Source: a virus (taxonomy: Duplodnaviria > Caudoviricetes). Taken from it: 57,456 nt of DNA. The stretch's first letter is position 1. Each line of letters starts with the position of its first letter. Positions 1 through 55,483 of the stretch are shown in pieces. The position numbers and the translations under genes were made by a program. Under the pieces are notes generated by a model. The model saw only the letters and a list, made by a program, of their open reading frames with translations. It was not told the DNA's origin and did no database searches. The stretch spans positions 1 through 57,456 of the IMG/VR virus record IMGVR_UViG_3300036823_000129; one strand, given 5' to 3'.

Positions 1-235
1 AAGGTCGGGACTGCCTCACGCCGCGCGAGCGGCCCCGAGAGGCCAGCCCACCGTAGCGAATAGCCGTCGAAAGCCTCCCGGAGTCCAGACAGGCTGTCCA
101 GAAAACCCCGATCTTGCAGGGATTTCTGCCGGATTTAGAGTTAATCTCTAAACGCGGATAGGTGTCGGAAATCAGTCTTCTTGCCGACTATGCGCGGGGT
201 TCCGTGGCGGGCTGAAATGACCGACTGCTATCCGC
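1..235. repeat. Direct repeat block A, copy 1 (partner 56339-56573)
   Basis: Bases 1-188 match 56339-56526 with 2 mismatches. A diverged spacer of identical length follows, then an identical CCGACTGCTATCCGC. Confidence 0.97.
134..235. promoter_or_regulatory. Candidate recombinase binding/crossover site (palindrome plus inverted boxes)
   Basis: TTTAGAG-TTAAT-CTCTAAA at 134-152. GCGGATAG-gt-GTCGG at 154-168 is inverted to CCGAC-tg-CTATCCGC at 221-235. The same arrangement lies just upstream of the short tyrosine recombinase in copy 2. Confidence 0.55.
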
Positions 236-449
236 ACGAAAGAGGGCGCTCGGGCTCGGGCGACATGAGCCACACCTGGACGACTGGGTACAGGTTGTCG
301 AAACCAGGGCCAGATCGGTGACCGGCCTTCGTATCGATGATCTGCTCGTCGTCGGCGACGTCGATCACCACCGAGTCCCAGGTCATTCCGTAGCCCTGAG
401 GGAATCCCTCGGTGCCGACGAACTCGACCATCCTGACGCGGTACTTCAT
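228..449 (-). CDS. Small hypothetical protein (cargo gene 2 of module copy 1)
   Basis: ATG at 449 overlaps the upstream TGA (MKYRVRMVEF...). The TAG stop lies inside the CTATCCGC box. Confidence 0.7.
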   Translation of the reverse strand: MKYRVRMVEFVGTEGFPQGYGMTWDSVVIDVADDEQIIDTKAGHRSGPGFDNLYPVVQVWLMSPEPERPLSCG

Positions 450-616
450 GCGGCGGAGTCGTCGTCTTCGGAGATCGCTTCGGCACGGATCACGCGCCAA
501 CCCTCCCGTTCGATCTGGGCCTTCGCGGCTTCGATCGATTCGGCCTCGCGGACGGTCACGAGCCACGCTCCATCTAGTTCGCCGCCGACCTTGTCGATCG
601 TAAGCAGGACTCGCAC
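446..616 (-). CDS. 56-aa hypothetical protein (cargo gene 1 of module copy 1)
   Basis: Read by hand: VRVLLTIDKVGGELDGAWLVTVRE...DDDSAA*, with an ATGA overlap to the next gene. Confidence 0.6.
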   Translation of the reverse strand: MRVLLTIDKVGGELDGAWLVTVREAESIEAAKAQIEREGWRVIRAEAISEDDDSAA

Positions 617-626
617 AGCTATCGCT

Positions 627-845
627 TCACGCTGGCGCGGCGCCGAGCTCGTCCCGTCCGATCGGGCCGTGATGGCTGAAGACCCTCGTGATTTCGCCGT
701 CGCGGAGCTCGAACTCGATCCGCCAGTTCCCGTCGGCTGACTGGCCGCCCGTGATGAATCTCGCGACCTCGCTCATCAGGCTCCGGACGAGCGTGTTCAG
801 TGCCGCAGGGTCATGCTCGCGATCGGCCGCATCCATCGCTTGCAC
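627..845 (-). CDS. Conserved 72-aa hypothetical protein, copy 1
   Basis: Nearly identical protein at 57068-57283 with clustered synonymous changes, which supports coding status. Confidence 0.85.
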   Translation of the reverse strand: MQAMDAADREHDPAALNTLVRSLMSEVARFITGGQSADGNWRIEFELRDGEITRVFSHHGPIGRDELGAAPA

Positions 846-885
846 ATTGTGCAGGACACTACGGCTACTTGCAGATTTTTAGAGC
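643..885. repeat. Direct repeat block B, copy 1 (partner 57081-57323)
   Basis: High identity at offset 56438. Homology ends right after TTTAGAGC. Includes the palindrome TGCACA-T-TGTGCA (841-853) over the start codon. Confidence 0.97.
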
Positions 886-34983: not shown

Positions 34984-37900
34984 TCAGGGCGCCATCAGAG
35001 CGCGCCCACCGAACGGGCCGCTCGAGCTAGCCGCCATCGCATGCGAGGTGTGCTGGATCTTCTGGATCACCTTCGTCACGATCTCGTCGGCGTTCGAGCC
35101 GGTGACGTGGAAGACGTACTGCGATGTGCCTGGCACCGAGAGCCCCTGCACGCCCATTCCGGTGGGGAGACGGCCGCCGTGCGCCATCAGCTGCGCGATC
35201 CGCATCTCGTCGGCCTTCTTCGCGCCGGCCGGGACGTGGAGCATCGCGGCGATCTTCGATGCGCTCAACGTCTTCGCATATCCCCGCGTGACGCCCTGCC
35301 CCAGAACCTGGTTCTGCTGCGCGATGTCGTCGTAGATCGCGATCTGCCCCTGCAGGCTCAGCGTGTGCGCCTTCAGGAGCTTCTCATCCCATTTCTTGAT
35401 CGCGAGAGCGGCCTGGACGTCCTGTTCGCTCGTGGCGCCCTGATCACTCGACGAGGCCTGCGCGGCGGCGAGCTGCAGAGGCAGCGGAACCTGCGGGTTG
35501 TTGCGGAGGTTGTTGAGCTGTCCGCGCGCGGTCGCGGCGTGTTGCCGCGCGTCGTTCCTCTGGGTCGGCGTGAGCTCCTTGTTCGCGGCTTCGCTCTCGT
35601 AGCCGGCGATCAGGTTCCTGAGTGCGGCCTCCTGCCCGGCGACGTTCCCCTTCGACGCTTTCGCCTGCGCGACCCGTGCTTTGAGGCCGGAGATGATCGT
35701 GGATTCGTAGGTGAGGGCGTCCTTCAGTGCGGCGGCGTTCTCGCCCTTCTTCGCCGCGACCGCCTCGGCGGCGTACCGGGCACGCTCGGCCGCCGTCAGC
35801 TTCGAGTCCTTCGCCTCGTCCTTGAAGAACGTGATCTCGGCGTCCCTGGCTTTCGAGTCGGCCGTGGAGGGCTTCCCGTCATGGCCGGTGCCGCCGGCAG
35901 CGGAGACGGCGGTGATCAGCGACTCCGCATGAGTTGAGACACCGGACGCGTACTCCCGTTGGGCCTTCGCCGCGGCCGCCTTCTTCTTGTTGCTCGCCGA
36001 CGTGGTTTTGGTCGTCGCGGACTTGATCGAGGCCTCGGTCGCCGAGCGGTCTGTCCCGTATTGCTGCAGCAGCGAGAGGTACTTCGTCTTCGTGATCTTC
36101 CCGTCCGCGAACGCTTTCTGGGCGTCGGCGAGCTGCTTGTCATCCATCGCGAGCTTCTCCTTGAGCAGCGCGACGTTGTTCGGGTCGAGATACAGCCCGG
36201 CCTGGATCTGCTCCGCCTTCGTGAGCTTCGGCGCGGCCGCCGTCGTGGCCGTCGGCGACGTTTTCCCGCCATAGCCCTTCATCTTCTCGAGCTGGCCGTT
36301 CAGCTCGTTGATCTGCTTCGGCGTCCAGCCGGCCGAGAACGCCTGCAGGTCTTCGGCCGTCACGTTCGGGTTCAGGTTCAGCGACGAGATCTTCTGGTCG
36401 GCGACCTGGAGGTAGTCGGCGTTGCTCGCGAAGTACGGCTTCAGCTTCACGATCTGCGCGAGCGTGATCCCCGAGATGACGTCGACGTCGTCCGAGGTCA
36501 GGTTGTGCCGGTTCATTCCGCCCGCGGTCGCTTTCTTCCTGAGCGCGTTGTATTCGGTGGTGCTGGTCGGGCCGGTCGGGATGATGCTGTCGCCGGTGAT
36601 CGCCGCGCCGAGCTTCGCGGCGCCGAGCGCCGCCTGCGTGTCGACTCCGCCGAGGCCGGGGATCCCCGCGAGCGCGTTACCGACGGTGTTCCCGAACACC
36701 TTGTCGAGGACGCCCTTGCCGGCGCTGCTCTTCGGGACGATGTCGAGGATCAGCGTCGCGACGAACGCCTTCGCGGCCAGGCCCAGCAACCCCGCCCTCA
36801 GCCCCGCGACCTTCCCCTCAGCCGTGACCGCGCTCGCTCCGAGCCCCGCGACCTCAGCGTCGGTCTTGGCGAGCGCCGGACCGGCTCTCACGGGGATCGT
36901 CGTGAACGCTGTCCCGATGCTCTTCACCGCCCGGGTGGCCGCGGCGGCGCCGAGGATCACGGGGCCACCGACGGCGAGCAGCCCGACGACGATCCCGATG
37001 TCCTGCTTCACCGGGCCGGGAAGACCGGAGAACGCGCCGGCGATCTCGGTGACGCCGTTCGCGACCTTCGTGACCGTCGGAAGGATCGCGTTGCCCAGCC
37101 CGATGAGGATCGCCTCCATCTCCGCGATGTCACGGTGGAACGACGCCGCGGCGGTGTGCTGCTGCTCAGCCTCGCTCGACGTCAGTTTCCCGGTGCTCGC
37201 GATCACCTGGTTGACCTTCTGCGCGTACCCCGAGACGGGCGCGTCAAGTGACTGGACGAGCGTGATGATCGCCGAGCTCTGCCGTGACCGCCCGAACGCA
37301 GACGCCAAGTCCTGCTCGCCCTGCACCTTCCCGACGCTGTCGACGCCCTCCTTCAGCCGTTGAAGCGCGAGGAGCAGCCCATTCGGTTTCTGCAGATCGA
37401 TCGCGAGCTCGTTCGCGCCGATCCCCATCGCCGCCAACGCCTTCTGAGCGACAGGGGCGGGATCTGACATCAGCTTCAGCGTCGCGCCGAGCCTCGTGGC
37501 TGCCTGCTGCGCCGGCACGCCGCGGTCGACGAGCACATCGAGGGCGGCGCCGACCTCGGTCAGGCTCACACCGACGAGCTTCGCGTTACTCAGGAGCCCG
37601 GTGCCGAGCGCGTCGGTCAGGTCTTGCATCGTCATCGCGCCGCCGCCGACGATCGCGTTCAGGGTGCCCATCGCCTGCTGGTAATCCTGGGCGCCCTTGA
37701 CGTTCGACACGATCGCGCCACCGAGTGCGTTCGCGGTGTCGGTCAGGTTCGCCTGCCCGAGCGCCGCCGCGTTCGACGCGACCTTCAACGCGTTGATCGC
37801 CGCGGTACCGCGCAGCCCGCGGGACTCGAGGTAGTAGAGCGCGTTCGCGAGCTCAAGCGGGCCCTGCTGCGCCCCGCCCTTCGCGAGCGCGAGGACAGCG

Positions 37901-38328
37901 CCGTTCATCTTCTGCACCTCGGTCGCTGACGCGCCCGCCTGCGTCTGGATCCGAAGCATCGCCGACTGGAAATCGGTGCCGAGCTTCACCGCCGCGAACC
38001 CGGCGAGCAGCACCGGCGCCGTCACGAACGTCGTCAGGGTCCGCCCGATCTGCGACGCAGCCTCGAGCTGCGACGCCTTCAACGAGTCGATCGTCTTCTG
38101 GTACCGCAGCGTCGCGTTCGCCGCACCCAACGTGCCGGCGCCGTACCTGTCCATGGAAAGCGCGAGCTTGTCCTGGGCCGACGCGAGCTCGAGCGTCGAA
38201 ACCGACATCCCCTTGAACGCCGACAGGTATGTCTTCGCGAAGTCCTCGGTCGCGCCCGCGGCCCGGCCGAGAGCAGCCTCGAGCGGCGCGGAGTTCCCGA
38301 TGATGTCAACGCCGGCACGGAGGGTCAT
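34984..38328 (-). CDS. Tape measure protein (TP901-like core)
   Basis: 1114 aa, Ala-rich, DFQSAM..., ELANALYYL.S.G; GGAGG RBS. Confidence 0.92.
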   Translation of the reverse strand: MTLRAGVDIIGNSAPLEAALGRAAGATEDFAKTYLSAFKGMSVSTLELASAQDKLALSMDRYGAGTLGAANATLRYQKTIDSLKASQLEAASQIGRTLTTFVTAPVLLAGFAAVKLGTDFQSAMLRIQTQAGASATEVQKMNGAVLALAKGGAQQGPLELANALYYLESRGLRGTAAINALKVASNAAALGQANLTDTANALGGAIVSNVKGAQDYQQAMGTLNAIVGGGAMTMQDLTDALGTGLLSNAKLVGVSLTEVGAALDVLVDRGVPAQQAATRLGATLKLMSDPAPVAQKALAAMGIGANELAIDLQKPNGLLLALQRLKEGVDSVGKVQGEQDLASAFGRSRQSSAIITLVQSLDAPVSGYAQKVNQVIASTGKLTSSEAEQQHTAAASFHRDIAEMEAILIGLGNAILPTVTKVANGVTEIAGAFSGLPGPVKQDIGIVVGLLAVGGPVILGAAAATRAVKSIGTAFTTIPVRAGPALAKTDAEVAGLGASAVTAEGKVAGLRAGLLGLAAKAFVATLILDIVPKSSAGKGVLDKVFGNTVGNALAGIPGLGGVDTQAALGAAKLGAAITGDSIIPTGPTSTTEYNALRKKATAGGMNRHNLTSDDVDVISGITLAQIVKLKPYFASNADYLQVADQKISSLNLNPNVTAEDLQAFSAGWTPKQINELNGQLEKMKGYGGKTSPTATTAAAPKLTKAEQIQAGLYLDPNNVALLKEKLAMDDKQLADAQKAFADGKITKTKYLSLLQQYGTDRSATEASIKSATTKTTSASNKKKAAAAKAQREYASGVSTHAESLITAVSAAGGTGHDGKPSTADSKARDAEITFFKDEAKDSKLTAAERARYAAEAVAAKKGENAAALKDALTYESTIISGLKARVAQAKASKGNVAGQEAALRNLIAGYESEAANKELTPTQRNDARQHAATARGQLNNLRNNPQVPLPLQLAAAQASSSDQGATSEQDVQAALAIKKWDEKLLKAHTLSLQGQIAIYDDIAQQNQVLGQGVTRGYAKTLSASKIAAMLHVPAGAKKADEMRIAQLMAHGGRLPTGMGVQGLSVPGTSQYVFHVTGSNADEIVTKVIQKIQHTSHAMAASSSGPFGGRALMAP

Positions 38329-38360
38329 ACCGACCTCCAGACCTGCGAAAATCCGAGGCT

Positions 38361-38828
38361 GTGGCAGCTAATCCAGACCGACTGATCAAGGGGCTTCCGG
38401 CCACGGAGTATTTCGCTCGTTACCGCGAAGAGCACCGCGAGGAGATACGCGCCAAAGGCCGCGAGCGTCAGCTCAAGAAGAACCGCCAGGCCGGCATGTT
38501 CGAGAGCGGCTCTCCCGAACACAGAGAGCGGATGCGCCAGTGTCGTAAGGCAAAGGGCGAAGAGCACGGCAACTGGAAGGGCGACGACGTCGGATATGAC
38601 GCCCTTCACGACTGGGTTAAACGGAACAAGCCGCGTACCGGAATCTGCGAGGCCTGCGGTAAAAAGCCGAGGACGTGGACGCATCTTGCGAACGTGTCGG
38701 GCGAGTACCGCCGCGATGTCGCCGACTTCATTGAGTTGTGTGCGTCCTGTCATAAGAAGCGCGACCTGGCCGAGACGCGAGGGGCGAGAGAGCGGTTCGA
38801 GCGGCGGGTAGCGACCACGCCCGTCTAG
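38361..38828 (+). CDS. HNH-like endonuclease inserted antisense between chaperone and tape measure genes
   Basis: GEEHGNWKGD...Y.ALHDWV...CEACG....HLAN......LCASCHKK.D. Confidence 0.8.
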   Translation: MAANPDRLIKGLPATEYFARYREEHREEIRAKGRERQLKKNRQAGMFESGSPEHRERMRQCRKAKGEEHGNWKGDDVGYDALHDWVKRNKPRTGICEACGKKPRTWTHLANVSGEYRRDVADFIELCASCHKKRDLAETRGARERFERRVATTPV

Positions 38829-39333
38829 GCCTCTTTCGCCATCGCGCGGAGCAGGTCGACCGCGCCCATCAGCTGGTAGGGGGTCAGGTCGCCTATGTCT
38901 GCGGGCCTGAGGTGGCAGATGTGTCCGAGCCCTGCTGACCAGTACGACTCGGGTCGCTCTCCGGGCTGCCCGACGAGCTGCTCGAAGTCGCGCCAGAACC
39001 CTCGGGTGAGTCGGCGCTGCTTTCGGGCAGCTCTGAGGCTGGGGGGCCGGCATCAGCGTCCTCTTCATCACCGGCGAAGACGAGGGCGATCGACCCGTGC
39101 GGCGCGTCCCAGAGCTCGTCGACGTTCACGTCCTTGTCGGCCCGCCGGAGCGCAAGCAGCGCGTACGACACCCAGAGGGCAGGGTCTTTCGCGAGGAACG
39201 CGTCGAGGAGCTCCCCGTACCGCAATCCGGTGAGGAGCTTGATCTCGTGGTACTCGCGGTTCGTGATCGATGACGGCTCGAGCTCGTAGACGCCGTCGAC
39301 CTTCTTGCCGACACCGGTGATGCTGATCTCCAC
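38825..39333 (-). CDS. Tail assembly chaperone pair with a predicted -1 frameshift
   Basis: Short form VEISITG... stops at 38893. Slipping at C CCC CCA (39040-39046) gives ...FWRDFEQLVG...DLTPYQL...AKEA* at 38825. Confidence 0.75.
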
Positions 39334-39344
39334 TGGCTTGCCTC

Positions 39345-39647
39345 CTAGGTTCCGTGGCTGGCGACGATCGCAGCGATCCGGCCTTCGAGCCCGGCGACAG
39401 CGCCTTCGAGCTTCGCGTCGCGTGCCGGCAACATCGCGTGGGTGACCATCAGCGCCCCGAAGTCGGGCCGCTTCCCGGTCGTTTTCCGGAGCGCCTGCTC
39501 GACCCGGACGAGCCCGCCGGCGCGGACGCGCTCCTGGAACCCGGCGGCGCTGGCCGTGCTGTACCGCCAGAACCGCCGGGTTGCGTCGTCGCGGACCTCG
39601 CCGCCGACGAGCAGGAGCTCCTCTTTGACCGCCGCGGCGCACTCCAC
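39345..39647 (-). CDS. Neck/tail completion protein (HK97 gp10-like)
   Basis: Position and basic composition. The frame stays open to a CTG at 39710 overlapping the tail-tube stop, so the start is uncertain. Confidence 0.55.
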   Translation of the reverse strand: MECAAAVKEELLLVGGEVRDDATRRFWRYSTASAAGFQERVRAGGLVRVEQALRKTTGKRPDFGALMVTHAMLPARDAKLEGAVAGLEGRIAAIVASHGT

Positions 39648-39706
39648 TCCGATCGTCTCGAACGTCCTCGCGAGGTTGAGGAGCGGCGTGATGTTCGCGG
39701 GCCCGA

Positions 39707-40120
39707 TCAGGTCGTGACCCGGTCGACGAGACCGATCACCTTGAACGTGGTCTGGCTCTTCGAGAGCGCGCCGACCTGGCCGTTGACCGGGTCGTAGTTG
39801 AAGAGCTTCGCGGTCATGCGGTAGCTCGGGTTCTCGTCCGAGACCGCCCCCTGGAAGTTCTGGTAGGTGATCTCGAACTCGTCCTCGTCGCGGTAGAGCG
39901 GGAAGAGGGTGTCGGTGACGGAGCCGCTGTCCTCGTCGTTCATGAACTCGACGACGCAGCCCTCGTCTGCGAGGCCGTGGACCCAGTCGTGGCCGCCGCC
40001 GGCGTTCAGGCCGGTCGCGTCGATCTGGTCCTTCGTGAGCGGGATGTCGATCGACGTGACGTGATCGGACAGATCGACGCCGGCGATCTCGAGGACGCCT
40101 TCCTTGACTACGAACTTCAT
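39707..40120 (-). CDS. Major tail tube protein
   Basis: GVDLSDHVTS, GL.D, S..NPSY, G.VG.L; AAGGAG RBS. Confidence 0.85.
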   Translation of the reverse strand: MKFVVKEGVLEIAGVDLSDHVTSIDIPLTKDQIDATGLNAGGGHDWVHGLADEGCVVEFMNDEDSGSVTDTLFPLYRDEDEFEITYQNFQGAVSDENPSYRMTAKLFNYDPVNGQVGALSKSQTTFKVIGLVDRVTT

Positions 40121-40150
40121 CTGAGTGTCTCCTTCGGGTTAGCGGGCACG

Positions 40151-40171
40151 AAAAAGCCCGCTTGCGCGGGC
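40151..40171 (-). terminator. Intrinsic terminator upstream of the tail tube gene
   Basis: GCCCGC-GCAA-GCGGGC-TTTTT. Confidence 0.85.
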
Positions 40172-40202
40172 CGGGAACTTGCGGTCATGGCGGCAGGTGG
40201 TT

Positions 40203-40622
40203 TCAGACGTAGACCTTCACGAGCCATTCGGCGCCGATGACCTCGCCTGACCCGTCGGGGCTCTTGTAGACGCGGTAGCCGGACGAGCTCGTGACGATCA
40301 GGTCGGCGCATTTCCCGCCGAGGCGGCTGTCGGACTCGATCGCCGCTTTCACGCTGCTCGGGCCGTCGCTCGCGATGTACTCGTCGAGCGTCGTCTGCGC
40401 GCCGATGTCGGTTGTGCGGGACACGAACACCTGCACCGTCATCTCGACGGTCTCGAGACCGTCGCTGAGCGCGCCGTGGTACTCGATCGGGCCCGGGATG
40501 ACGTGCGCGGCCGGCGGTGTCGGCGACGCGAGCATCACGGGCGACACCTGAATCGTTTTGCCGAGCGCGTTCTGGAGGTTCGCGGCGATCGCTTTCCGGA
40601 TCCCGACGAAGTCAGCGGCCAT
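40203..40622 (-). CDS. Tail terminator-like protein
   Basis: IRKAIAANL, PPAA, Q..LDEY....G..SVKAAIESD..LGG. Confidence 0.75.
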   Translation of the reverse strand: MAADFVGIRKAIAANLQNALGKTIQVSPVMLASPTPPAAHVIPGPIEYHGALSDGLETVEMTVQVFVSRTTDIGAQTTLDEYIASDGPSSVKAAIESDSRLGGKCADLIVTSSSGYRVYKSPDGSGEVIGAEWLVKVYV

Positions 40623-41620
40623 CAGGCGAAGTAGACGTCTCTCGTGTAGCGGGCCAGGAGCTTGCAGACGTCGGGGTCGGTCATCGAGAGCCGCATCCCG
40701 CCGCTCTCGTTCCCGAGCCCGACGATCGCCCACGGCGCCTCCCGTTTACGGAGCACCAGGCGGGGCGCGAGGATCATCACGGCCTCCTGCACCTTCGCCG
40801 GCACCTCGGGCCACCCGAACCGTCCGGTGACCCGCACTGCCTGCGGGATCCGGTACGGCCACCAGAACTTCCCGATCACGTAGGGGCCGCCGTAGCCGCC
40901 GTACCCGGGGAACCTGCCGAGCGAAGGCACCCGCTGCCGCACAGTGATCCGTTCCCACGGTTGCGCCTTCAACGGGGCGTTCGGCGGGTCGAGCAGGATG
41001 TCGGTCGGGTACGACCAGATGTTGGTGTAGTCGCCGTAGCCGGTCGGGTCGGTCGCGAACTCGGTGAGCTCGATCAGGTCGTCGATCTCGATCACGCCAT
41101 GCCGGGACGCCGTGTAGTACCGGACGCTCGTCGCGTCGGGATCCTTGCCGAAGTACCGGTGGGTCTCGTCATCGACGAGCCTGGAAGCGGCGCTGATCGA
41201 GAGAACGAGATCCTCGTCGGCGAACGACTGCGAGACCAGCGACCGGGATTTCTTGACGGCGTCGAGGGTGACGTAGTCGATCAGGTCGAGCCCGAGCGCC
41301 GGTGGCTCCTGGAGAACGGTGAGCGCCCCGGTGGCGAGCGTGACGACATGCCCGTCGGCCAGTGTCGCGGTGAGCGCGTAGAGCCAGTTCGGCTCGATCA
41401 GCGCCGCGGTGTCGTCGGCGGTCAGCTCCACCTGGGCTTCGGTCGCTGACACGACAGTCCCGGCCTTCTCGAACGTGGTGCCGGTCGGGTTGAGCAGGCG
41501 AAGCAGGATCGCTCCGGCGGTGATGTCGGGCCATGCGGTGCCAGCCCAGTCGAGCGCGCGGCTGTCCGCGGCAAGGTAGTCGTCCCCAGACACGACCTCC
41601 ACGGTGTCGCCGTCGGTCAC
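40622..41620 (-). CDS. Head-tail adaptor with an extra N-terminal Ig/BppU-like domain
   Basis: C-terminal YVTLD.VK...AASR.VD....RYF...GWP.VP..V..A; N-terminal GDD...V.LTA.DT...Y...G.LTV. Confidence 0.75.
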   Translation of the reverse strand: MTDGDTVEVVSGDDYLAADSRALDWAGTAWPDITAGAILLRLLNPTGTTFEKAGTVVSATEAQVELTADDTAALIEPNWLYALTATLADGHVVTLATGALTVLQEPPALGLDLIDYVTLDAVKKSRSLVSQSFADEDLVLSISAASRLVDDETHRYFGKDPDATSVRYYTASRHGVIEIDDLIELTEFATDPTGYGDYTNIWSYPTDILLDPPNAPLKAQPWERITVRQRVPSLGRFPGYGGYGGPYVIGKFWWPYRIPQAVRVTGRFGWPEVPAKVQEAVMILAPRLVLRKREAPWAIVGLGNESGGMRLSMTDPDVCKLLARYTRDVYFA

Positions 41621-41645
41621 TACGGGCGGGCCTCGGTCACGCCGG

Positions 41646-41870
41646 TTAGGCCTTCGCCTTCGTTCCGCGCCTCGCCGGGACGACGTCGTCGGAGCCAGGG
41701 ACGGCGGTCACGAACGCCGACGCCGGCGCGAACAGCCCCTCACGGCCACGCACGAGAGGATCGTCCGCCTGGATCAGCATCCCCTTCGTGATCAGCCGTG
41801 TTTTCCCGCCTCCGACGTTCACGATCGCCGACGAGCGCGCCATCAGGATCTCGGTGTCGTTGATCTTCAC
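41646..41870 (-). CDS. Small post-capsid protein
   Basis: AAAGGAG RBS; DPLV.GRE.LF motif. Confidence 0.7.
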   Translation of the reverse strand: MKINDTEILMARSSAIVNVGGGKTRLITKGMLIQADDPLVRGREGLFAPASAFVTAVPGSDDVVPARRGTKAKA

Positions 41871-41890
41871 TCTTGTTGCTCCTTTCGTTC

Positions 41891-41949
41891 GAGCCGCCGG
41901 GCGCCGCGAGGGGCACAGGAAAGGCGCCTCGCGGCGCCCGGGTTGGCTC
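41891..41949. terminator. Strong GC hairpin after the capsid gene
   Basis: CCGGGCGCCGCGAGG / CCTCGCGGCGCCCGG 15-bp perfect stem. Confidence 0.75.
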
Positions 41950-41970
41950 AGTCGGTTAGATGCTCAGGTC

Positions 41971-44871
41971 TTAGGTGTGCTGGACCTGGAGCACCCGGAA
42001 CGCGTTCGCCGTCAGGACCTGCGACGAGTTCCGCCAGTAGGCGTACAGGCCGCGGGAGCCGAGCGGGTAGCCCGTCCCGGTGTCGAACAGGTGTGGGATG
42101 AACTCGACGCTCATCCCGATCCGGTCGACGACGAGGAACTGCTCGAAGTCGCCGAGCACCGCGATGTACTCGCCGCCCGTCGAGGTGAGCTTCGACATGG
42201 CCGACGCGCGCCATGCCGGGTAGCCGAGCAGCTGGAAGCCGGTGTTGCCGCCGTCACCGCGGCCGCTTCCCTGCTGCACCGGGATGAAGATGTTGAAGGT
42301 GTCGTCCGTGACCGACCGGACGGCGTTGTAGAACGCGCGGTTCGCGACGAAGCACGAGTTCGGCTCGAAGCGGTCGGCGACCGCGTTCTCGAGCAGATAG
42401 AGGTCGTCGCGGGCGAACGCGTTCACGGACGCCGTCTCGACGATGATCGAGCCGCCGACCGCCTCGAGCGCGGTCAGGAGCCCCTCGGGCTCGTGCGAGC
42501 CGTGGCCGGCACCGAAGAAGAACTTCTGTGCTTCGAGGACGTCCTTGGCGTCGGCGAACAGCTTCGACAGCTCGGCCTCGACGCCGATCCAGTCCTGGCT
42601 GACCTCGATCGAGAGCGGCACGAACGCCTGCGCCTTCTCGACCTCGAGGACCGGCTGGGCGAGCGTCGGGCTGTTGTCGCTCGCCGGCGTGAGCTCGGGC
42701 CCGTAGGACGCGACGACACCGTCCGACGTCGTGACGCCGAGCCACTGGTGCCCGGTGATCTGCGCCTGACGCGAGATCTGCCGGATCGGGTTGACCGCGC
42801 CGTTCGACGCGAGGATGACGGTCGGGTCGAGCGTGTACGGGATCGCGTAGCCGCCGTCGCTGGGCGTGCCGATCGTCAGGGCGTACATGTCGAGCGCCTG
42901 CTTCTCGGTGCCGTTGATCGGGAGCCCGCGGACGGCCTTGCTCCACGCGCGGCGGTACTGGTCGGAGCCGGTCGCGAGCATGTGCCGCGCGAACGATCCG
43001 TCCTGGGTGTCGTTCGCGAGGAGCTTCAGCACGTGCGCCTTCGCCTTGCCCTCGTTGATGTTCTCGTTCGGGATCTGGGCGATCTCGAGCGCGCGCTTCG
43101 CCCCGTCCTTGAACAGGGAGCCGAGCTCGTCGATGCTCCGGGCCCGGGAGCGGTACCCGGCGATGTCCCAGACGTTCTCGTTCGCCTCGGGCGAGCGGGT
43201 GCTGAACGACCCGATCTCGACGCGGCTCGCGGCCGGTGCGGCGGCACCCTTCTCCTGCAGCATCGCCTTCCGCTCGCGCATCTCCGTGACGGTGGCCTTG
43301 AGGTTCTGCCACTCCTCCTGGAGGTCGTCGAACTCGCTCTTGGCGTCGGCCGGCATCAGCTCACCGGCGAACGTCGCGTCGAGTTCCTCCTGGCGCGCGC
43401 GGATCTCGTCCTGACGCGCGACCAGCTCTTCGATCGTCTTCACGTTCTTCTCCTTGTCGTTGGTCGCGTTCGCCGGCGGCGTCGCGGTTGCTTCCAGCTC
43501 CAGATCAAGCGCGGAGCCCTTCTTTGCGTCGAAGTCGTCGAGGTGGCGTTGCAGGTGCGCCTTCACGCCGTCCTTGTCGCCCTCGGGGATGTCGCTGTCG
43601 TCGAGACGGGCGAGCCCGTCACGGACAGCGGAGATCACCGCTGGGCCTTCGACCTTCGTGTGATGCGGGAACTTCCAGTCGCTCTTCGCGTCCGGGAGCC
43701 CGTCGTCGTCGGTGTCGTTGTCGTCGGTCGAATCGGCGAACCACGCGAACACCGACTTCCACTCGGCCTGCTTGCCGTCGGGGAGCGCCTTCTCCACCTC
43801 ACCGGCATCCCAGGGCTCGTCGATGACCTCGGTCGAGTGCGGCGCGATCGCCCCGGCGAGCACCCCGACCGTCGTGGCGGGCGGCATCACGATCACCGGG
43901 CCCTGACCCTCGCCGAACGACGTGACATCGACCTCCGCGAACGTCCCGAGTCCCGGAACGAGCGCCGCCATCGGCAGCGCGAGCTCGGCACTGCGACGCC
44001 GCGAGACGCCCGGCGCTGCCTTCCCGCCCGAGAGCTTCCCGATCGTGTCCGCCAACGTCCCGACGCTGTCGGCCATCCCGGCCTTCACCGCCTCGGCGGC
44101 GTTCACCATCCGGCCCTGCCCGAACCCGTCGATCACGTCCTGCTGCGACACCCCGCGTCCCTTCGCGACCGCCGCGGTGAACATGCCGTAGAACTCGTCG
44201 ACGTTCGCCTGAGCGGCCTCGAGCGCCTCCTCGGAGAGCGGCCCGAACGGCGACCCCTCCGTCTTGTACTTCCCCGCGGAGATCAGCGTCGTCTTGACGC
44301 CCATCTGCTCCTGCATCCCCGACACGTCCTGGTGCGCCGAGTACACGCCGATCGAACCGACCGCACCCGACGGCGTCACGACGACCTCGTCGCAGCACGC
44401 CGCGATCCAGTACGCCGCGCTCGCGGCCTCCGTGTTCGCGACCGCCACGATCGGCTTGCCCTTCCCCCGCATCGCGAGGATCGCCGCGCCGGTCTCCGGA
44501 ACCATGTCCGTCGAACCACCAGGGCTGTCGATGTCCAACACGACCGCGGTGATCTGCGGGTTCTGCATCATCGCCTGCAGGTCACCGAGGAACGAATCGA
44601 GGGCGCAGCCCCCGGAGATCTCGCTCATCAGCCCGGCCTTCGGCGTGATCACGCCCTGAACGGGCAGCACGCCGACCGCGCCCTGCGTCGGCACCACGGT
44701 TTCCCGCTGCCGCCGGGCGGCTTCGAGCTCGGCCCGGATCTCGTCCGGGGTCAGTCTGACTCCTTCGACTCTACGATGAACGATCTCGACGATCGTTGCC
44801 AGCCGTTCCGGCCGCATCGCCCAAGGCGTGTTGAGCACGAGGTTAACCACGTGCCGGTATGGCCTATCCAC
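41971..44871 (-). CDS. S49 maturation protease fused to HK97-fold major capsid protein
   Basis: LDIDSPGG, AASAAYWIA, GSIGV; then DGGYAIP, NPIRQ, LGDF..F.VVDR, AFRVL. AAAGGAGG RBS before GTG 44871. Confidence 0.93.
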   Translation of the reverse strand: MDRPYRHVVNLVLNTPWAMRPERLATIVEIVHRRVEGVRLTPDEIRAELEAARRQRETVVPTQGAVGVLPVQGVITPKAGLMSEISGGCALDSFLGDLQAMMQNPQITAVVLDIDSPGGSTDMVPETGAAILAMRGKGKPIVAVANTEAASAAYWIAACCDEVVVTPSGAVGSIGVYSAHQDVSGMQEQMGVKTTLISAGKYKTEGSPFGPLSEEALEAAQANVDEFYGMFTAAVAKGRGVSQQDVIDGFGQGRMVNAAEAVKAGMADSVGTLADTIGKLSGGKAAPGVSRRRSAELALPMAALVPGLGTFAEVDVTSFGEGQGPVIVMPPATTVGVLAGAIAPHSTEVIDEPWDAGEVEKALPDGKQAEWKSVFAWFADSTDDNDTDDDGLPDAKSDWKFPHHTKVEGPAVISAVRDGLARLDDSDIPEGDKDGVKAHLQRHLDDFDAKKGSALDLELEATATPPANATNDKEKNVKTIEELVARQDEIRARQEELDATFAGELMPADAKSEFDDLQEEWQNLKATVTEMRERKAMLQEKGAAAPAASRVEIGSFSTRSPEANENVWDIAGYRSRARSIDELGSLFKDGAKRALEIAQIPNENINEGKAKAHVLKLLANDTQDGSFARHMLATGSDQYRRAWSKAVRGLPINGTEKQALDMYALTIGTPSDGGYAIPYTLDPTVILASNGAVNPIRQISRQAQITGHQWLGVTTSDGVVASYGPELTPASDNSPTLAQPVLEVEKAQAFVPLSIEVSQDWIGVEAELSKLFADAKDVLEAQKFFFGAGHGSHEPEGLLTALEAVGGSIIVETASVNAFARDDLYLLENAVADRFEPNSCFVANRAFYNAVRSVTDDTFNIFIPVQQGSGRGDGGNTGFQLLGYPAWRASAMSKLTSTGGEYIAVLGDFEQFLVVDRIGMSVEFIPHLFDTGTGYPLGSRGLYAYWRNSSQVLTANAFRVLQVQHT

Positions 44872-44890
44872 AGAACCTCCTTTGGGCATG

Positions 44891-44912
44891 AAAAAGGCCG
44901 CTCTCGGCGGCC
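44891..44912 (-). terminator. Intrinsic terminator upstream of the protease-capsid gene
   Basis: GGCCGC-CGAGA-GCGGCC-TTTTT. Confidence 0.85.
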
Positions 44913-44940
44913 CCAGTGGTAGTGCGGTGAGAACCAGGTT

Positions 44941-46317
44941 TCACTCCGGCTCGTCCCCAACGACGATCTCCGGGTCAGGCGAGCCGCCCTTTATCTGCGT
45001 CGGCTGCAGCTGCACCGACGGCAGCCCCGAGTGCTCGAGCAACGTGAGATCGCCCTGGTTCACCGCCTCGATGATCGACTCCGGTGTGAAGCCGCCCATG
45101 ATCAGGGTGTTGATCGTCTTCGCGTTCACACCGAACACGTTCGCGGCGTCAAGGACGTCGGCCTGAAGCGCCGGGATCTCGCTGTCGCTGTACCAGAGCT
45201 CCGACACGCCGCTGGCGTCCGTCGCGGGCATGTCGATAATCCGCTCCGCGGAGCCGCAGAAGTTCTGCCAGTTCGGCCGGACCGTCAGGTTCGAGAACCG
45301 CCGCATCGCCGACTGATAAACCTTGTCGCTAAGCGCCGTCCCGTTCATCGACTCGGCGAGCCCGATCACCTCCGGCGGCACACCTGCGGCGGCCGCGAGC
45401 CTCGTCTCGCCGTAAGCCTGGATCGCCCGGAAATCGATCTGCTTCAGATCAGCCCCGACAATCGTCGCGCTCGCGCCAGCCCCGAGGAACAGCGACTTGT
45501 AGGCGTTCCGGGTGCCCTCGCTCTGCTCCCCGAAGATCTCCCTCCACCGCGCGAACTTCTCCGGGTCCGTCTCCGGCATCGTCACGAGCATCGACGGGGT
45601 CGCGCCGTGCTCGAAGAACTTCAGCTTGTGCGCCTGCGCAGCCTTGTCACCGAGGATCTCGGTGATGACCGGCTCGAGCCAGGAGCAGCCGCGCCACGGC
45701 GCGATCGGATCCGGGATCGGCATGTAATGCATGACCTCCTCCGGCAACAGGTACTCCGGGTCCTCGCCGGCCGCCGCGCCACCGGGCTGGTAGATGTAAC
45801 CGACCGGCTGAGCGTCGATGTCGTAGCCCTGCACCTCGTCGTCGGTGTTCGATCCGAGGATGATCGTCGTCCAGTCCGGCCTCAGCCGCCGCACACCGGT
45901 CGCCCGCCGCGCCCCGAAGAAGTTCCCGCAGATCGACACGTCCATCTCGGCGAGCGCCAACAGATCAGCAGTGGTGCCGCCCGACCACGGCGTCTCGAGT
46001 GGGGCGAGCGCAGTCGTGCCGAACAGATCGCCCGGCTTCCCGTTCAGCCGCCTGCGGAACTGGAACCGCGCCTGCGCGAACAGCGCCTGCCGGGCCGTGA
46101 TCAGCGCGAAAACGATGCCATTCTGCTTGTACGCCATCTGCGCGATCCCGAGATAGTTCGGCGTGATCCGCTGCTGGTTCCCAACCAACGTCTGGTTGAG
46201 CGGCGCACCGTAGATCTGGTTGCCGTAGCTGAAGTACTCGACCCACTCGCCGAACGGGAGCGGCATCCCGGCCGTGGCGCTCGTCTTCCCCCCGGCGATA
46301 CGTCCGACGACGCTCAC
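44941..46317 (-). CDS. HK97-family portal protein
   Basis: GNFF, LRPD, EVMH...PDP...RG.S, FFEHGATP, AAGVPP..IG. Confidence 0.9.
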   Translation of the reverse strand: MSVVGRIAGGKTSATAGMPLPFGEWVEYFSYGNQIYGAPLNQTLVGNQQRITPNYLGIAQMAYKQNGIVFALITARQALFAQARFQFRRRLNGKPGDLFGTTALAPLETPWSGGTTADLLALAEMDVSICGNFFGARRATGVRRLRPDWTTIILGSNTDDEVQGYDIDAQPVGYIYQPGGAAAGEDPEYLLPEEVMHYMPIPDPIAPWRGCSWLEPVITEILGDKAAQAHKLKFFEHGATPSMLVTMPETDPEKFARWREIFGEQSEGTRNAYKSLFLGAGASATIVGADLKQIDFRAIQAYGETRLAAAAGVPPEVIGLAESMNGTALSDKVYQSAMRRFSNLTVRPNWQNFCGSAERIIDMPATDASGVSELWYSDSEIPALQADVLDAANVFGVNAKTINTLIMGGFTPESIIEAVNQGDLTLLEHSGLPSVQLQPTQIKGGSPDPEIVVGDEPE

Positions 46318-46538
46318 GACTTCCGCTCCGCCAGGAACACGACCGCGCTCACCGCGGCGCCGGCGACGATCACGCCCGCCGGCCGATAGATCATCCCCGT
46401 GCCGCCCGCGACGAGCAGCAAGCCGCCAAGGAACAGCACATCCGGCGCGAGCTTCCATGCCCAACGGCGGCCGCGCGCGAGTACCGGCGTGGTCTTCGAA
46501 CGCAGGAGCGCCAGGACAGCGAGGAGCCGCACGCTCAT
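46314..46538 (-). CDS. Small membrane protein between terminase and portal
   Basis: Two hydrophobic helices around IYRPAG; coupled on both sides. Confidence 0.7.
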   Translation of the reverse strand: MSVRLLAVLALLRSKTTPVLARGRRWAWKLAPDVLFLGGLLLVAGGTGMIYRPAGVIVAGAAVSAVVFLAERKS

Positions 46539-48028
46539 ACCCATGCCGCCAGCATTGAGGACTCGTCCTTCCCGAACTCCTCGCTCGCGACCGAGTTCAC
46601 CATCGCGCCGGCGACGAGCGCATCGATCACACGCGCTTCCTGATCGCCACCCTGCCGTGTCGAGCTCGGACGGTCAAACCGCGCGCCGCCCCCCGACAAC
46701 CCTCGCGCGATCGCGTTCAGCACATGCCGCGTCAAACCGAGATCCCCGGAATGGCGCAACCAGCCCTCACGGAGCGCCTCCATGAACCGCTCGTAATCGA
46801 GCGCCGCCATCGCGTTCCCCTGCGACCGGTCGACGACGCGGCAGCCGAGCTCGTCCTCGGCCCACCGCGCGAGCTGCTCCGCACGGGTCATGTCCATCAC
46901 GAGCGTGTGGATCGGATTCCTGGCGTGCACAGTCATCAGGGCCTTCTCGACGAGATGCGGGTCGAGCGACGTTCCGTCCCGCGGCGGCGTCAGCACCTCG
47001 GCCGGCCCGAACAGCCGATACTCGAGATCGCGCATCCACAGCGGCACAAGCGACGTCGTATCCCACTTCCATCCGACATCGAGGCCGGCCCACACCGGCT
47101 CATCCTCAGGAATCGGATCCGCGCTGAATGCGGCCGCCCATTCGATCTCCTGCACCGCGGCCGAGTCTGCGCGGGTCGCGAGGTTGCACGTGAACCGGCG
47201 CCAATGCGGCAACGTCATCGTCGCCGTTCCGCGCTTCTCCGCGAGATCGTCGACCGTGATCCCCGTGAACGGATTCGCGAGCTTCACGACGTCCATGTCC
47301 TCGACGTCGCCGTCCTCGGGCACCGCGTACTCGTGGAACGAGATCCCGTTCGAGCGGCATCGCGTGAATCCGGGCCGTCGCTCAACCACGGGGACGGTCT
47401 GCCGGATCAGCTCGCGCGTCGTCTCGAACTCGCCGCCCGGCTCGCCGGCGGTCGAGATCGTCGAGAGCTGCCCGCCGCGCTTCCCGAGCTTCCCGCGCCA
47501 TGTCCGGTAGAGCCGCAGGTCCTTGTGCCGGTGGAGCTCGTCGAGGAACGCGTCGGTCGGGATCACGCCGTCACCGGTGCCGGCGTCGGCGGCGAAGACC
47601 TGCATCCGGCCGCCCGTCTCCGTGTTCTTGATCCGCCGGTAGCCCTCCTGGCACTTGATGAACTTCTTCAGCCGCTCCGACCTGATCACGAATCCCTCGG
47701 CCTGGCGGTAGCCGATCTCGGCCTGGTCGCGTGACGACGCGGCCCATGGCACCGCGGCGAGCGGGCGGAACTCGACGATGTAGACGACCAGGCCGCCGAG
47801 GTTCGTTGTCTTCGCGTTCCCCTCGGGCACCAAAAGCCAGTTCTCGGGTACCCCGGCGAAGTAATCCTGCAGGTAGAGGAGGAAGTACGGCTCGACGATC
47901 CACGGCTCGCCGTTGTCGAGCTCGAGCTCGGCCGCCCACGTCTCGAAATGCTCGACGGTGAACGGATGCTGCTCGGTCGCGTCGGCGCGCGGCCGGCGCT
48001 TACGCGAAGTCGCCGGCGCGATCGTCAC
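46535..48028 (-). CDS. terL: Terminase large subunit
   Basis: Variant Walker A VPEGNAKTT, AASSRDQA, FLDELH, ISTAG, ANP, GLDVG...D, IDALVA..M. Confidence 0.92.
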   Translation of the reverse strand: MTIAPATSRKRRPRADATEQHPFTVEHFETWAAELELDNGEPWIVEPYFLLYLQDYFAGVPENWLLVPEGNAKTTNLGGLVVYIVEFRPLAAVPWAASSRDQAEIGYRQAEGFVIRSERLKKFIKCQEGYRRIKNTETGGRMQVFAADAGTGDGVIPTDAFLDELHRHKDLRLYRTWRGKLGKRGGQLSTISTAGEPGGEFETTRELIRQTVPVVERRPGFTRCRSNGISFHEYAVPEDGDVEDMDVVKLANPFTGITVDDLAEKRGTATMTLPHWRRFTCNLATRADSAAVQEIEWAAAFSADPIPEDEPVWAGLDVGWKWDTTSLVPLWMRDLEYRLFGPAEVLTPPRDGTSLDPHLVEKALMTVHARNPIHTLVMDMTRAEQLARWAEDELGCRVVDRSQGNAMAALDYERFMEALREGWLRHSGDLGLTRHVLNAIARGLSGGGARFDRPSSTRQGGDQEARVIDALVAGAMVNSVASEEFGKDESSMLAAWV

Positions 48029-48318
48029 GCAGGCCTTCCCTGCTGAACCGCCTGGCCGGCGCGCGCATTGCAGCTCCGATGCTCAGGCCTGCGCTCGCCG
48101 CCGGCGCCACCTTTGACGACGTCGACGACGTGGCCGGCGACGAACGGATCGTCCTCGCGCGGCCCCTCGCCGCACCGCCAACACGCGGTGGCCGACTTGG
48201 CAACGGCTCTTGCGTCGCGGTGCTCGCGTGTGTCATAGTCGCGGCGCCTCGGATGCTTCGAGCAGCGATTCCCTGAGGCAGCGATCGCACCGCACACCGA
48301 GCAGGCCCGGACGGTCAA
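48025..48318 (-). CDS. Terminase-associated HNH endonuclease
   Basis: CSVCG..RC..H, CWRCG...GHV....GG......HRSCN. Confidence 0.8.
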   Translation of the reverse strand: MTVRACSVCGAIAASGNRCSKHPRRRDYDTREHRDARAVAKSATACWRCGEGPREDDPFVAGHVVDVVKGGAGGERRPEHRSCNARAGQAVQQGRPA

Positions 48319-48566
48319 TCGGCACCATCCGAAATTTTTCTCGCGGCGATGGCGCGGAATGAAACGGCATCGCTCGATGCCATAGGTCGACCCGCCCCCC
48401 CTAGGTGCAGCTGCTGCTCCACGGCCTGCTCGAGGCCTTCCTGCTCAAGCTCGGCGGCGAGGGCTGCAACCTGGTCACGGTCGTGGTGGAGCATGGTGGC
48501 GCGGCTCGGGAGCTTCCGCAGCCAGCGGCTGTAGGCGAGCCGCTCGGCGATGGTCAAGCTGCCCAC
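48315..48566 (-). CDS. Hypothetical protein
   Basis: ORF overlaps both neighbours; its 3' part runs through the candidate cos site. Confidence 0.45.
   Translation of the reverse strand: MGSLTIAERLAYSRWLRKLPSRATMLHHDRDQVAALAAELEQEGLEQAVEQQLHLGGAGRPMASSDAVSFRAIAARKISDGAD
48328..48405 (-). other. Candidate cos/packaging site
   Basis: A G-rich run GGGGGGCGGGTCG followed by CGCCGCGAGAAAAATTTCGG next to HNH/terL, resembling cos regions of HK97-like phages. Confidence 0.4.
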
Positions 48567-49231
48567 CGTTCGAGCTGGTGGCGGCGGCGGGCCATGTAGT
48601 ACTCGGTTGCCTGGCGCTTCCGCTGTTTGTCTCGGGCGTCGTGGTCGTGGACAAGCTGGAGGTGGCTGCTCAGATCGATCGCTTCCTCGAGCGGCACATA
48701 GGCGGGGTCTCCGTGGAGCCAGCGGCCGTCGCTTGTGCGGTAGCCGTTGTGGGCGCGCTCGAGGGTGATGCCGGTGTCTGCTCGGTAGATGCGCCTGATC
48801 GGGCTCGCGGTGATGTTCGTGACCTCGATGCCGGCGCGGCGGATCTGTAGGCGCGCGACGTCGAGTTTGGTGCGGGCGAGCGCGCGGCGGATCTCGTTGC
48901 TGTTGCCGTGTTCGATGTATTCGTCGGCGTCGACGACGAGGATCCAGTCGGTTCGGCGGCCGGCTGCTTCGTGCATGAGTGCGGCGCGTTTCCCGACCTG
49001 TGTGGGCCAGATGATTCCGCCGGTGATGAGGACGTCGATGCCGACCTCGCGTGCGGCGTCCTCGATCGCCTGGGCCTGGTCGGGGTTGCTGAAGCTGGCG
49101 CCGTTGGGGAAGTGCTGCCAGGCGCCGTCGTAGGCGATGAGATTGTCGGCGATGCCGCCGAGCGAGGTGATGAGCCGCGCGAGGGTTTCGGGTGTTTCGT
49201 CGTACCAGGCGAGCGCGGCCGTGATGATCAT
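48554..49231 (-). CDS. GT-A fold glycosyltransferase-like protein
   Basis: WYDE, LIAYDGAW, Q..KR, DWILVVDADEYI. Confidence 0.75.
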   Translation of the reverse strand: MIITAALAWYDETPETLARLITSLGGIADNLIAYDGAWQHFPNGASFSNPDQAQAIEDAAREVGIDVLITGGIIWPTQVGKRAALMHEAAGRRTDWILVVDADEYIEHGNSNEIRRALARTKLDVARLQIRRAGIEVTNITASPIRRIYRADTGITLERAHNGYRTSDGRWLHGDPAYVPLEEAIDLSSHLQLVHDHDARDKQRKRQATEYYMARRRHQLERWAA

Positions 49232-49779
49232 GTTCCGACCGCCGTCTTCGCAGGGTCGATGACGCGGAACTCCCAGCCGTCGACGAATCCGAGGTGGCCG
49301 AGCTCGCGCTGCGGATGCGGATCCCACCTGATCTCCCGGCCGAACATCACGACCAGGTGCAGCCCAGGCGAGAGACCGCCATCGCAGTAGGGGCAGGCGA
49401 TCGAGGGGTCGTGCCGGATCGACGGCCCGGATTCCGGATACGTGAGGTCTGTCCTCGCGGTGCCCTTGCAATGGCTGCACCGTGTCTTGAATCGCGGTGA
49501 GCGGACACTCGCGAGCCACCAGATGTCGCCGGGCCATCCGTTGAGCACCGTCGGGTCGTCTTCGTCGAGGCTGACGTACGCGTTGCCGAGGCGAAGATTC
49601 CGGGCGGCGAGCCACTCGGCCCAGAGCTGCCACCAGTTCTCGTGCTCGACGAAATGCGGGACTTCGAGGAGCGGCAGCTCGAACAGCGACGCGACGCAGG
49701 CGCGCATGCAGTCGCCGGCCACGACCGTGTCGCCGTGCTCGTCGATCACGGAAAGCTGCCACTGCTCGACTGGCGTCAA
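49228..49779 (-). CDS. Papain-like Cys-His-Asp protein with an inserted zinc finger
   Basis: GDCMRACVASL.E....VPHF, HLVV, WDPHP; CSHCKG/CPYCDG insertion. Confidence 0.6.
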   Translation of the reverse strand: MTPVEQWQLSVIDEHGDTVVAGDCMRACVASLFELPLLEVPHFVEHENWWQLWAEWLAARNLRLGNAYVSLDEDDPTVLNGWPGDIWWLASVRSPRFKTRCSHCKGTARTDLTYPESGPSIRHDPSIACPYCDGGLSPGLHLVVMFGREIRWDPHPQRELGHLGFVDGWEFRVIDPAKTAVGT

Positions 49780-53933: not shown

Positions 53934-53989
53934 CTCGCCTACCGGGGGCGGGCGGGCGTGCCCAACAACACGACGAGAGTAGCACGGCC

Positions 53990-54537: not shown

Positions 54538-54550
54538 CGGCGGCAGATCC

Positions 54551-54787: not shown

Positions 54788-54788
54788 G

Positions 54789-55414: not shown

Positions 55415-55483
55415 GGCGCACCTCCAGATGAGACGGGACCTCATTTGGTGTGCGCCACCCTGCTCGCGGCAGGCCCGAAGCGC

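Follow-up and report, generated by a model that had tools for sequence, protein, structure and literature searches.

Structure of the locus

The window analysed here is the complete IMG/VR virus record IMGVR_UViG_3300036823_000129, a stretch of 57,456 nt. Its two ends carry two versions of one small locus, in which unrelated pairs of short genes (the cargo) lie between a conserved 72-aa gene, termed gene B, and the gene of a small tyrosine recombinase. On the minus strand, the order of this slot is the 128-aa gene, gene B, the cargo, a 235-nt non-coding region, and the 187-aa recombinase. Version 1 (cargo 1) is located at the left end and version 2 (cargo 2) at the right end. The features are listed below.

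1–188, no strand: outer block A, non-coding, upstream of the small recombinase via the proposed circle join at 56338; 99% identical to 56339–56526, with differences at 110 and 127
189–241, no strand: diverged inner flank; 11 of 53 bases differ; holds the right arm of an inverted repeat (221–235) and the final four cargo codons
228–449, minus: second gene of cargo 1, 73 aa; small family of 66–101-aa proteins; three-strand beta model
446–616, minus: first gene of cargo 1, 56 aa; 4-nt overlap between its stop and the start of the following gene; no family match
627–845, minus: gene B, conserved, 72 aa; its last third (627–693) is the other diverged inner flank
879–1265, minus: 128-aa protein upstream of gene B, with an N-terminal hydrophobic, signal-like segment; other sequence follows 57323 in the second copy
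55757–56320, minus: small tyrosine recombinase, 187 aa, catalytic domain only, Xer-like; AAGGA precedes the gene
56339–56579, no strand: second copy of block A, version 2 allele, from sequence comparison
56566–56760, minus: second gene of cargo 2, 64 aa, an open frame
56757–57071, minus: first gene of cargo 2, 104 aa; its GTG start overlaps the gene B stop (GTGA)
57068–57283, minus: second copy of gene B, 71 aa, version 2 allele
57324–57456, no strand: 133-nt tail without a match to anything after 885, probably the start of a rarer third variant

Block A (1–241) matched 56339–56579 with 95% identity (E = 1.7e-106). Block B (622–885) matched 57062–57323 with 93% identity (E = 5e-111), or with 95% in the ungapped alignment of 640–885 with 57078–57323. 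The original prediction, made from the sequence alone, had described such recurring end blocks with unrelated DNA between them, and each of its observations was confirmed. The comparison extended the blocks to the coordinates given here, and the proteins encoded between the blocks could not be aligned by BLASTP at E ≤ 100, neither the 56-aa protein with the 104-aa one nor the 73-aa protein with the 64-aa one.

The differences between the copies were graded. There were 2 in 1–188, 11 in the 53 nt of 189–241, approximately 12 in the 67 nt of 627–693, and 3 in 694–885, while 242–626 was unrelated. From outer flank to outer flank, the identity profile was 99%, 79%, none, about 80%, and 98%. The copies part again at 886/57324, directly after the TTTAGAGC box. 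The tail from 57324 to 57456 holds the end of a different upstream gene, which indicates a second variable position on the other side of the 72-aa gene.

We consider it probable that the end copies are two co-existing alleles of one accessory-gene slot, joined by wrap-around assembly, and that they represent ordinary phage mosaicism. The contig would be one turn of a circular or circularly permuted temperate siphovirus genome of ~56.3 kb, followed by 1.1 kb into the other allele, with circular closure through the recombinase region. Each genome would carry either cargo 1 (56 + 73 aa) or cargo 2 (104 + 64 aa). With cargo 1, one unit of the genome measures 56,338 bp; with cargo 2, it is longer by ~100 bp.

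Assembly evidence for two alleles

The copies are homologous from base 1 of the record onward, as they would be if the repeat had been cut by the contig start; on any other view, this would be a coincidence. Run X1, a soil metagenome that is possibly the source sample and the sole public run with the sequence, was compared as contigs over window positions 1–8000. One Logan contig of 9250 nt (depth 12.4) contained 1–188 without differences and then continued for 9062 nt leftward past base 1. A contig of 565 nt (depth 6.3) spanned 159–723 and represents the version 1 arm. The second arm contig (depth 5.8) carried the exact version 2 letters at 189–210 and 675–693 and replaced 242–642. On the other side, a contig of 5190 nt (depth 12.2) covered 694–5883 unbroken, including across 885/886.

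The depths of the two cargo arms in this run (6.3 and 5.8) sum to the flank depth of 12.2–12.4, which indicates one cargo per genome and a ratio of ~1:1 in the population. The original prediction had suggested looking for an assembly bubble, and in the X1 contigs the bubble takes the form of these two arms at about half the flank depth. If both copies were on one molecule, the unique DNA would be at single-arm depth and a branch would appear at 885/886; neither was seen in the X1 main contigs.

A MEGAHIT contig (G001:C82, 22191 nt) in a Gaiellaceae metagenome-assembled genome (MAG) corresponds to window 57456..35266 at 99.98–100% identity and has the same final base, 57456. The end shared by the two assemblies is a graph break rather than a biological end. 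The MAG contig is also the sole hint of a host, and its binning may reflect composition rather than a prophage; the remainder of the phage was not found when the MAG was searched.

Further variant contigs were present in run X1 at 2605–2773 (depth 3.7 of 15.9) and at 5854–5977 (depth 3.3 vs 11.8). These ratios differ from the 1:1 ratio of the cargo, which shows more than two haplotypes and a microdiverse recombining population. Another minor variant contig was observed at 3967–4188, with a depth of 2.2 against ~12 for the main path.

The ends do not form a direct terminal repeat of the kind from which circularity is called, as the repeat is 93–95% identical, is split by unrelated cargo, and ends 133 nt before the right end. 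The locus resembles the imperfect closure of a circular genome in metagenome assembly in that the repeat is cut by the contig start, the arms are at about half depth, and two assemblers break at the same base. It differs in that the overlap is not the exact k-mer repeat used for circularity calls and in that the 133-nt tail of a further variant is attached. The inexact overlap explains why the record was labelled linear and 54% complete. The record is most likely a complete genome of ~56.3 kb, whose ends overlap imperfectly through co-existing alleles, and the apparent duplicated module is an assembly product. This correction is the main value of the analysis.

Gene B and the cargo genes

The two copies of gene B differ by 13 substitutions and one indel of an Ala codon. 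Twelve of the 13 substitutions are in synonymous codon pairs and the other is R9C, which indicates that gene B is under purifying selection. Eight of the synonymous changes are clustered at 675–693, and the clustering that had been noticed earlier in this shared gene therefore stands. The 72-aa protein of gene B had no match in viral contigs and matched only itself among 5.8 billion proteins. A profile built from three gene B sequences had no match in viral or genome contigs, and no other copy was found in the open reading frames (ORFs) of 177 loci.

All four cargo ORFs had a GC content of 0.74–0.91 at the third codon position (GC3) and 0.41–0.49 at the second (GC2), in a genome with a GC content of 66.7%. 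With this signature of high GC3 and low GC2, the cargo ORFs look like real genes. Gene B and the four cargo proteins had no significant match in PADLOC, Pfam, PHROGs, or NCBIfam. The sole match listed for the 64-aa protein was to the Pfam family BsNagA_N, far below threshold (E = 0.036, 14.2 bits vs a cut-off of 27.4). In the collection of 5.8 billion proteins, the 104-aa protein had no match but itself. For the 64-aa and 72-aa proteins, the Atlas offered no usable match, and their models were poor (pLDDT about 0.5).

Among 1.84 billion representatives, the 73-aa protein matched 16 relatives at E ≤ 0.001, of which 14 are 66–101 aa in length and two are much longer and matched in several stretches. 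The family has a conserved core that extends to near residue 67, followed by variable tails. The model of the 73-aa protein consists of three long strands (pLDDT 94.1), and it had no fold match at E ≤ 0.001 in PDB or BFVD. No PDB sequence match and no PHROG was found for the family, and searches of viral and genome contigs yielded none of its relatives.

Small tyrosine recombinase

The 187-aa protein matched PF00589 (Phage_integrase) over residues 12–176 (E = 3.1e-31, 108.9 bits vs a cut-off of 27.1). Its family comprises 25 proteins at E ≤ 1e-30 including the query, with lengths of 126–257 aa, of which 24 were aligned. In the alignment, R48, K72, H135, R138, and H139 are invariant, and H162 and Y171 are present in at least 90% of the members. 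We take these columns to be the catalytic residues of the R-K-H-R-H/W-Y pattern. The nearest relatives are 75–82% identical and are located on contigs of 1.6, 8.6, and 36.8 kb.

The closest models were XerC, XerA, and XerD, the cut-offs of which are all far above the scores of the recombinase. It is not a full-length Xer protein: XerC gave 136.6 bits vs 335 and XerD 117.1 vs 330, and only model positions 96–283 were matched, without the N-terminal domain. It is not an integron integrase either, with 60 bits vs 265 for TIGR02249 and 35 vs 435 for NF011946, each in two partial stretches. The Fim-type invertase model NF007371 was matched end to end (E = 1e-10), with 41.6 bits vs a cut-off of 222.

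In the order to which the MAG belongs, 251 of 301 genomes (a sample that includes 5 unpublished genomes) contained a match to the recombinase. Leaving aside the MAG itself, the best of these reached ~40% identity and were in frames of at least about 300 aa; these matches are ordinary Xer-type genes.

A second tyrosine integrase is encoded at 9664–10719 on the plus strand. It is full-length (351 aa), matched an integrase PHROG (E = 1.4e-42), and is Xer-like by NCBIfam. Since the phage has two tyrosine recombinases, the small one need not be the integrase. Nothing in these comparisons shows the small recombinase acting on the slot.

Conserved DNA beside the cargo

The following DNA features lie next to the cargo.

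106–121, minus: terminator-like hairpin followed by TTTTCT, from a consensus scan (3 sites vs 1.5 expected in the region)
134–152, no strand: perfect AT-rich palindrome TTTAGAG-TTAAT-CTCTAAA, a candidate protein-binding or recombinase core-type site
154–168, plus: left arm of the inverted repeat, GCGGATAGgtGTCGG, which pairs with 221–235
221–235, minus: right arm of the inverted repeat, GCGGATAGcaGTCGG, from which the last cargo gene of each version takes its TAG stop
878–884, plus: third TTTAGAG box, which holds the TAA stop of the 128-aa gene; the copies diverge right after it, at 886

The arms of the inverted repeat form 8 + 5 bp around 53 nt, and each version of the repeat folds on either strand (z −2.05 to −3.13). 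Its interior is without compensatory changes. There is one inverted repeat per genome unit, and searches of the viral and genome collections found the repeat pattern at no other place. Version 2 as an inverted version 1 was considered and rejected, because the two versions agree in the first 21 nt within the repeat.

As had been proposed from the sequence, the last cargo gene of each version ends at the same nucleotide. Both stop at a TAG within GCGGATAG, at the equivalent bases 228–230 and 56566–56568. The chance of such a shared stop codon in an AT-rich box is roughly one in three for any frame entering the box. High-GC ORFs run on until they meet AT-rich functional DNA, which would account for the stops within both boxes. 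All three cargo versions, including that of the related locus L109 described below, stop at, or 1 nt before, a GCAGTCG motif, which is followed by a hairpin.

TTTAGAG had 6 matches in the window vs 0.75 expected. Three of them are wrap-around duplicates, so that there are three per genome unit. In a search for attB, the 19-nt palindrome was found in 18 genome contigs, namely 17 from unrelated, mostly low-GC taxa and the MAG contig, and no attachment site was found among them. Rfam gave no match in the window. The most economical reading of the inverted repeat and the palindrome would be a terminator or processing hairpin of a small operon and a protein-binding site, respectively.

Relatives and a third cargo

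The scan of metagenome contigs for the recombinase retained 80 of 559 loci and was dominated by ordinary Xer genes. Only two of the 80, L108 and L109, were above 43% identity. L109 is a metagenomic locus of 1733 nt with a recombinase 47% identical to that of the window. Its order is a membrane protein of 124 aa, a homolog of gene B (48% identical over 46 aa, E = 5e-14), an unrelated 69-aa gene, a non-coding region, and the recombinase. The overlap between the GTG of the 69-aa gene and the stop of gene B is exactly that of version 2, and a hairpin GTCGC-N7-GCGAC is located at the matching place after the cargo. The same order with an unrelated third cargo indicates that the slot is old and has held at least three unrelated cargos. 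In L108, the recombinase is 57% identical, and the neighbourhood is different and without gene B. On this comparison, not every recombinase of the family is associated with the slot.

The 27-mer of block A was absent from viral and metagenome contigs, and among genome contigs it was found only in the MAG contig, which is equal to the window. Relatives of the terminase (52 loci) reached at most 63% identity, and none of them had gene B or any cargo gene.

The recombinase frame of L109 (1000–1612) is open and alignable from about 1037, with no ATG, GTG, or TTG before 1157. This may reflect an unusual start, a sequencing error, or a decaying gene. Upstream of the recombinase genes, L108 (2400–2460) and L109 (925–985) share CATATAGCA ... 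CTGTCTGAG/CACTCTGAG ... AATCC, possibly a promoter or operator common to both. With this region, the window has only CTGTCTG and AATCCCTGC in common.

Origin of the two alleles and alternative explanations

The diverged inner flanks suggest that the cargo entered with 50–70 nt of homologous, older sequence on each side and that the recent crossovers took place in the outer flanks. Such graded identity is a signature of homologous recombination between diverged relatives and points to that process rather than to a sharp site-specific joint. The older joints are located at gene ends, namely at the gene B stop and at a point four codons short of the last cargo stop. The original replacements would be old gene-boundary mosaic joints, and the alleles would since have been kept in the population and moved among backgrounds by homologous recombination in the near-identical outer flanks. 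Mosaic joints at gene boundaries are usual in tailed phages, and lambdoid phages have short conserved boundary sequences. The slot is like them in having unrelated DNA from the gene B stop to four codons before the last cargo stop and conserved sequence on both sides, with no difference of substance.

Several observations weigh against the two-allele, wrap-around explanation. IMG/VR lists the record as linear, with a CheckV completeness of 54. The evidence from run X1 is at the contig level, and the join 56338/1 was judged from contigs, not reads. The second copy has five extra single-nucleotide polymorphisms (SNPs; at 110, 127, 801, 821, and 877) and the 133-nt tail, none of which is in the X1 main contigs. 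A rarer third variant or a second sample must have contributed them. Just three versions of the slot are present in the data. Within a stretch that is 21–31% diverged, the right arm at 221–235 has no differences and the adjoining 32 nt have 10, which plain homologous recombination does not predict. Nor does it predict the box-like direct copy (12 of 15 columns) in the 10-nt spacer after the gene B stop, by which cargo 1 is flanked. Matches of this quality number about 16–23 per window on both strands, and one at that spot has a chance of ~1 in 100, estimated post hoc.

Both versions could instead lie on one physical molecule, as a tandem prophage pair or as a linear genome with long imperfect terminal repeats. 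They do share one assembled contig, and a second assembly has the same right end. However, the unique genome is at twice the depth of each arm, the main contigs have no branch at base 1 or at 885/886, and the homology is cut exactly at the contig start. Phage terminal repeats are regenerated at replication and are identical, unlike the 95% here. We regard this arrangement as highly unlikely. The original prediction had allowed for two related phages joined in tandem or as an assembly chimera. The tandem is rejected on the depths, and an assembly join that exposes a variable slot is supported by the homology from base 1, the 9-kb leftward contig, the half-depth arms, and the MEGAHIT end. The other reading offered there was integron-like capture of cargo by the small recombinase at the GCGGATAG box. 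The 187-aa recombinase would swap or insert gene cassettes after gene B at the GCGGATAG...CTATCCGC inverted repeat or at the TTTAGAG palindrome. Its gene lies directly beside the slot both in the window and in L109, and the 187-aa protein has retained the catalytic residues. The undiverged right arm, the common GCAGTCG and hairpin in or 1 nt before which the three cargo versions end, the imperfect direct box copy flanking cargo 1 (post hoc roughly p = 0.01), and the second divergence directly after the TTTAGAGC box, at 886, are all consistent with it. Against these stand the low score to the integron integrase model TIGR02249, the position of the recombinase gene downstream of the cargo on the same strand rather than divergent from an attI-type site, and the lack of a cassette array or of a second site for cargo 2 or L109. 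The cargo flanks are diverged homologous DNA and not identical up to a sharp joint, and the closer relative L108 does not have the gene B neighbourhood. No excised, empty, or inverted form was found among the X1 contigs, though contigs drop rare forms, and the repeat pattern is confined to this locus in the collections searched. We consider cassette exchange by this recombinase unlikely, and the capture first proposed is not supported, given the integrase score, the missing array, the diverged flanks, and the one-in-three chance of the shared stop. A broader proposal is that a catalytic-domain-only Xer-like family (187–220 aa) of soil actinobacterial phages uses GCGGATAGcaGTCGG ... CCGACacCTATCCGC or the TTTAGAG palindrome to capture promoterless cassettes behind gene B. 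This seems quite unlikely. If true, such single-slot cassette capture would be a minimal phage-borne integron analogue; a small recombinase family and structured DNA do not yet make a new system. A silent-cassette or shufflon model was rejected, as each arm is at half the flank depth.

The conserved DNA may also be explained by transcription. The inverted repeat would be a terminator or processing hairpin of the operon of gene B and the cargo, and the palindrome would be an operator. We hold this tentatively, at somewhat less than an even chance, and it is compatible with the two-allele explanation. Either version folds into the hairpin on either strand, with 8 + 5 pairs; the hairpin begins at the stop of the last cargo gene, and that of L109 is at the matching place. 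A terminator-like site with a T run follows it (121–106), and the stop of the 128-aa gene is also inside a CTCTAAA box. This reading accounts for the conserved box, and the common stop would be a by-product of an AT-rich box. The long loop of 53 nt, the lack of compensatory changes, and the modest z-scores argue against it.

Comparison with known systems

The locus shares several features with the accessory hotspots of temperate phages, namely conserved flanks, unrelated cargo, otherwise near-identical genomes, and a lysogeny or recombinase neighbourhood. The two alleles of the window, like the third one in L109, lie between a gene B homolog and a small recombinase, as is expected of an accessory hotspot. 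Unlike in those hotspots, the cargo here is tiny (56–104 aa) and matched no known defence family in PADLOC, Pfam, PHROGs, or NCBIfam, and the putative host lineage is uncultured Gaiellaceae. The role of the cargo would be accessory and moron-like. What remains as biology is a well-delimited polymorphic slot that holds tiny orphan genes in phages of an uncultured soil actinobacterial lineage, the Gaiellaceae, with alleles at ~1:1 in the population. The synteny of the slot is old, as it is common to a relative with a 47% identical recombinase. Such slots house defence, counter-defence, and superinfection-exclusion genes, and the five small proteins are therefore candidates for such functions.

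Like integron cassettes, the locus has a tyrosine recombinase beside promoterless small genes and an imperfect inverted repeat at the 3′-end of the cargo, the arms of which are conserved and the interior variable, with the stop in its first arm. Unlike in integrons, the recombinase of the slot lacks the N-terminal domain and is co-directional with and downstream of the cargo, and there is a single site and no array. The core consensus of attC is GTTRRRY. No such core was seen on reading both copies, no pattern search having been made. By any of the defining features tested, the locus is not an integron.

The FimB/FimE invertases are similar in size (about 190–200 aa), consist of the catalytic domain only, and have an inverted repeat beside the gene. 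In contrast to their invertons, there are 53 nt between the arms here, and the two versions are not mutual inversions. No strand-changing joint was among the joints listed for run X1, and contigs drop rare forms.

Other features of the phage genome

The gene set looks complete for a temperate siphovirus, and transcription is co-linear through the proposed join. The structural genes include the following.

34984–38328, minus: tape measure, structural set
46535–48028, minus: terminase, structural and packaging set

The minus strand also encodes the portal, a fusion of protease and major head protein, and the endolysin. The plus strand encodes DNA-metabolism genes, two methyltransferases, and the full-length integrase at 9664–10719.

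At 1404–2196, a minus-strand ORF of 218 aa and a plus-strand HTH-like ORF of 97 aa overlap at 1903–2060, and both have a GC3 of 0.63–0.64. The 97-aa ORF had a weak match to a repressor PHROG (E = 7.8e-4). The calls of lysogeny-switch genes around this region are uncertain. ARAGORN made one tRNA call, a tRNA-Thr (CGT) of 91 nt at 3874–3964. The call is inside a 421-aa ORF (3471–4736, PHROG E = 2.5e-100) and is probably false.

Ten in-register copies of a 48-nt unit are present at 32876–33106, with a 9-nt periodicity and start spacings of 9, 18, 33, 36, and 42 nt. They resemble a triplet-repeat stretch, collagen-like or Pro/Ala/Val-rich, within a minus-strand gene of the tail region. The head fusion is a single ORF of 972 aa at 41971–44889 on the minus strand, which comprises a head-maturation protease (residues 10–292) and the major head protein (residues 480–968).

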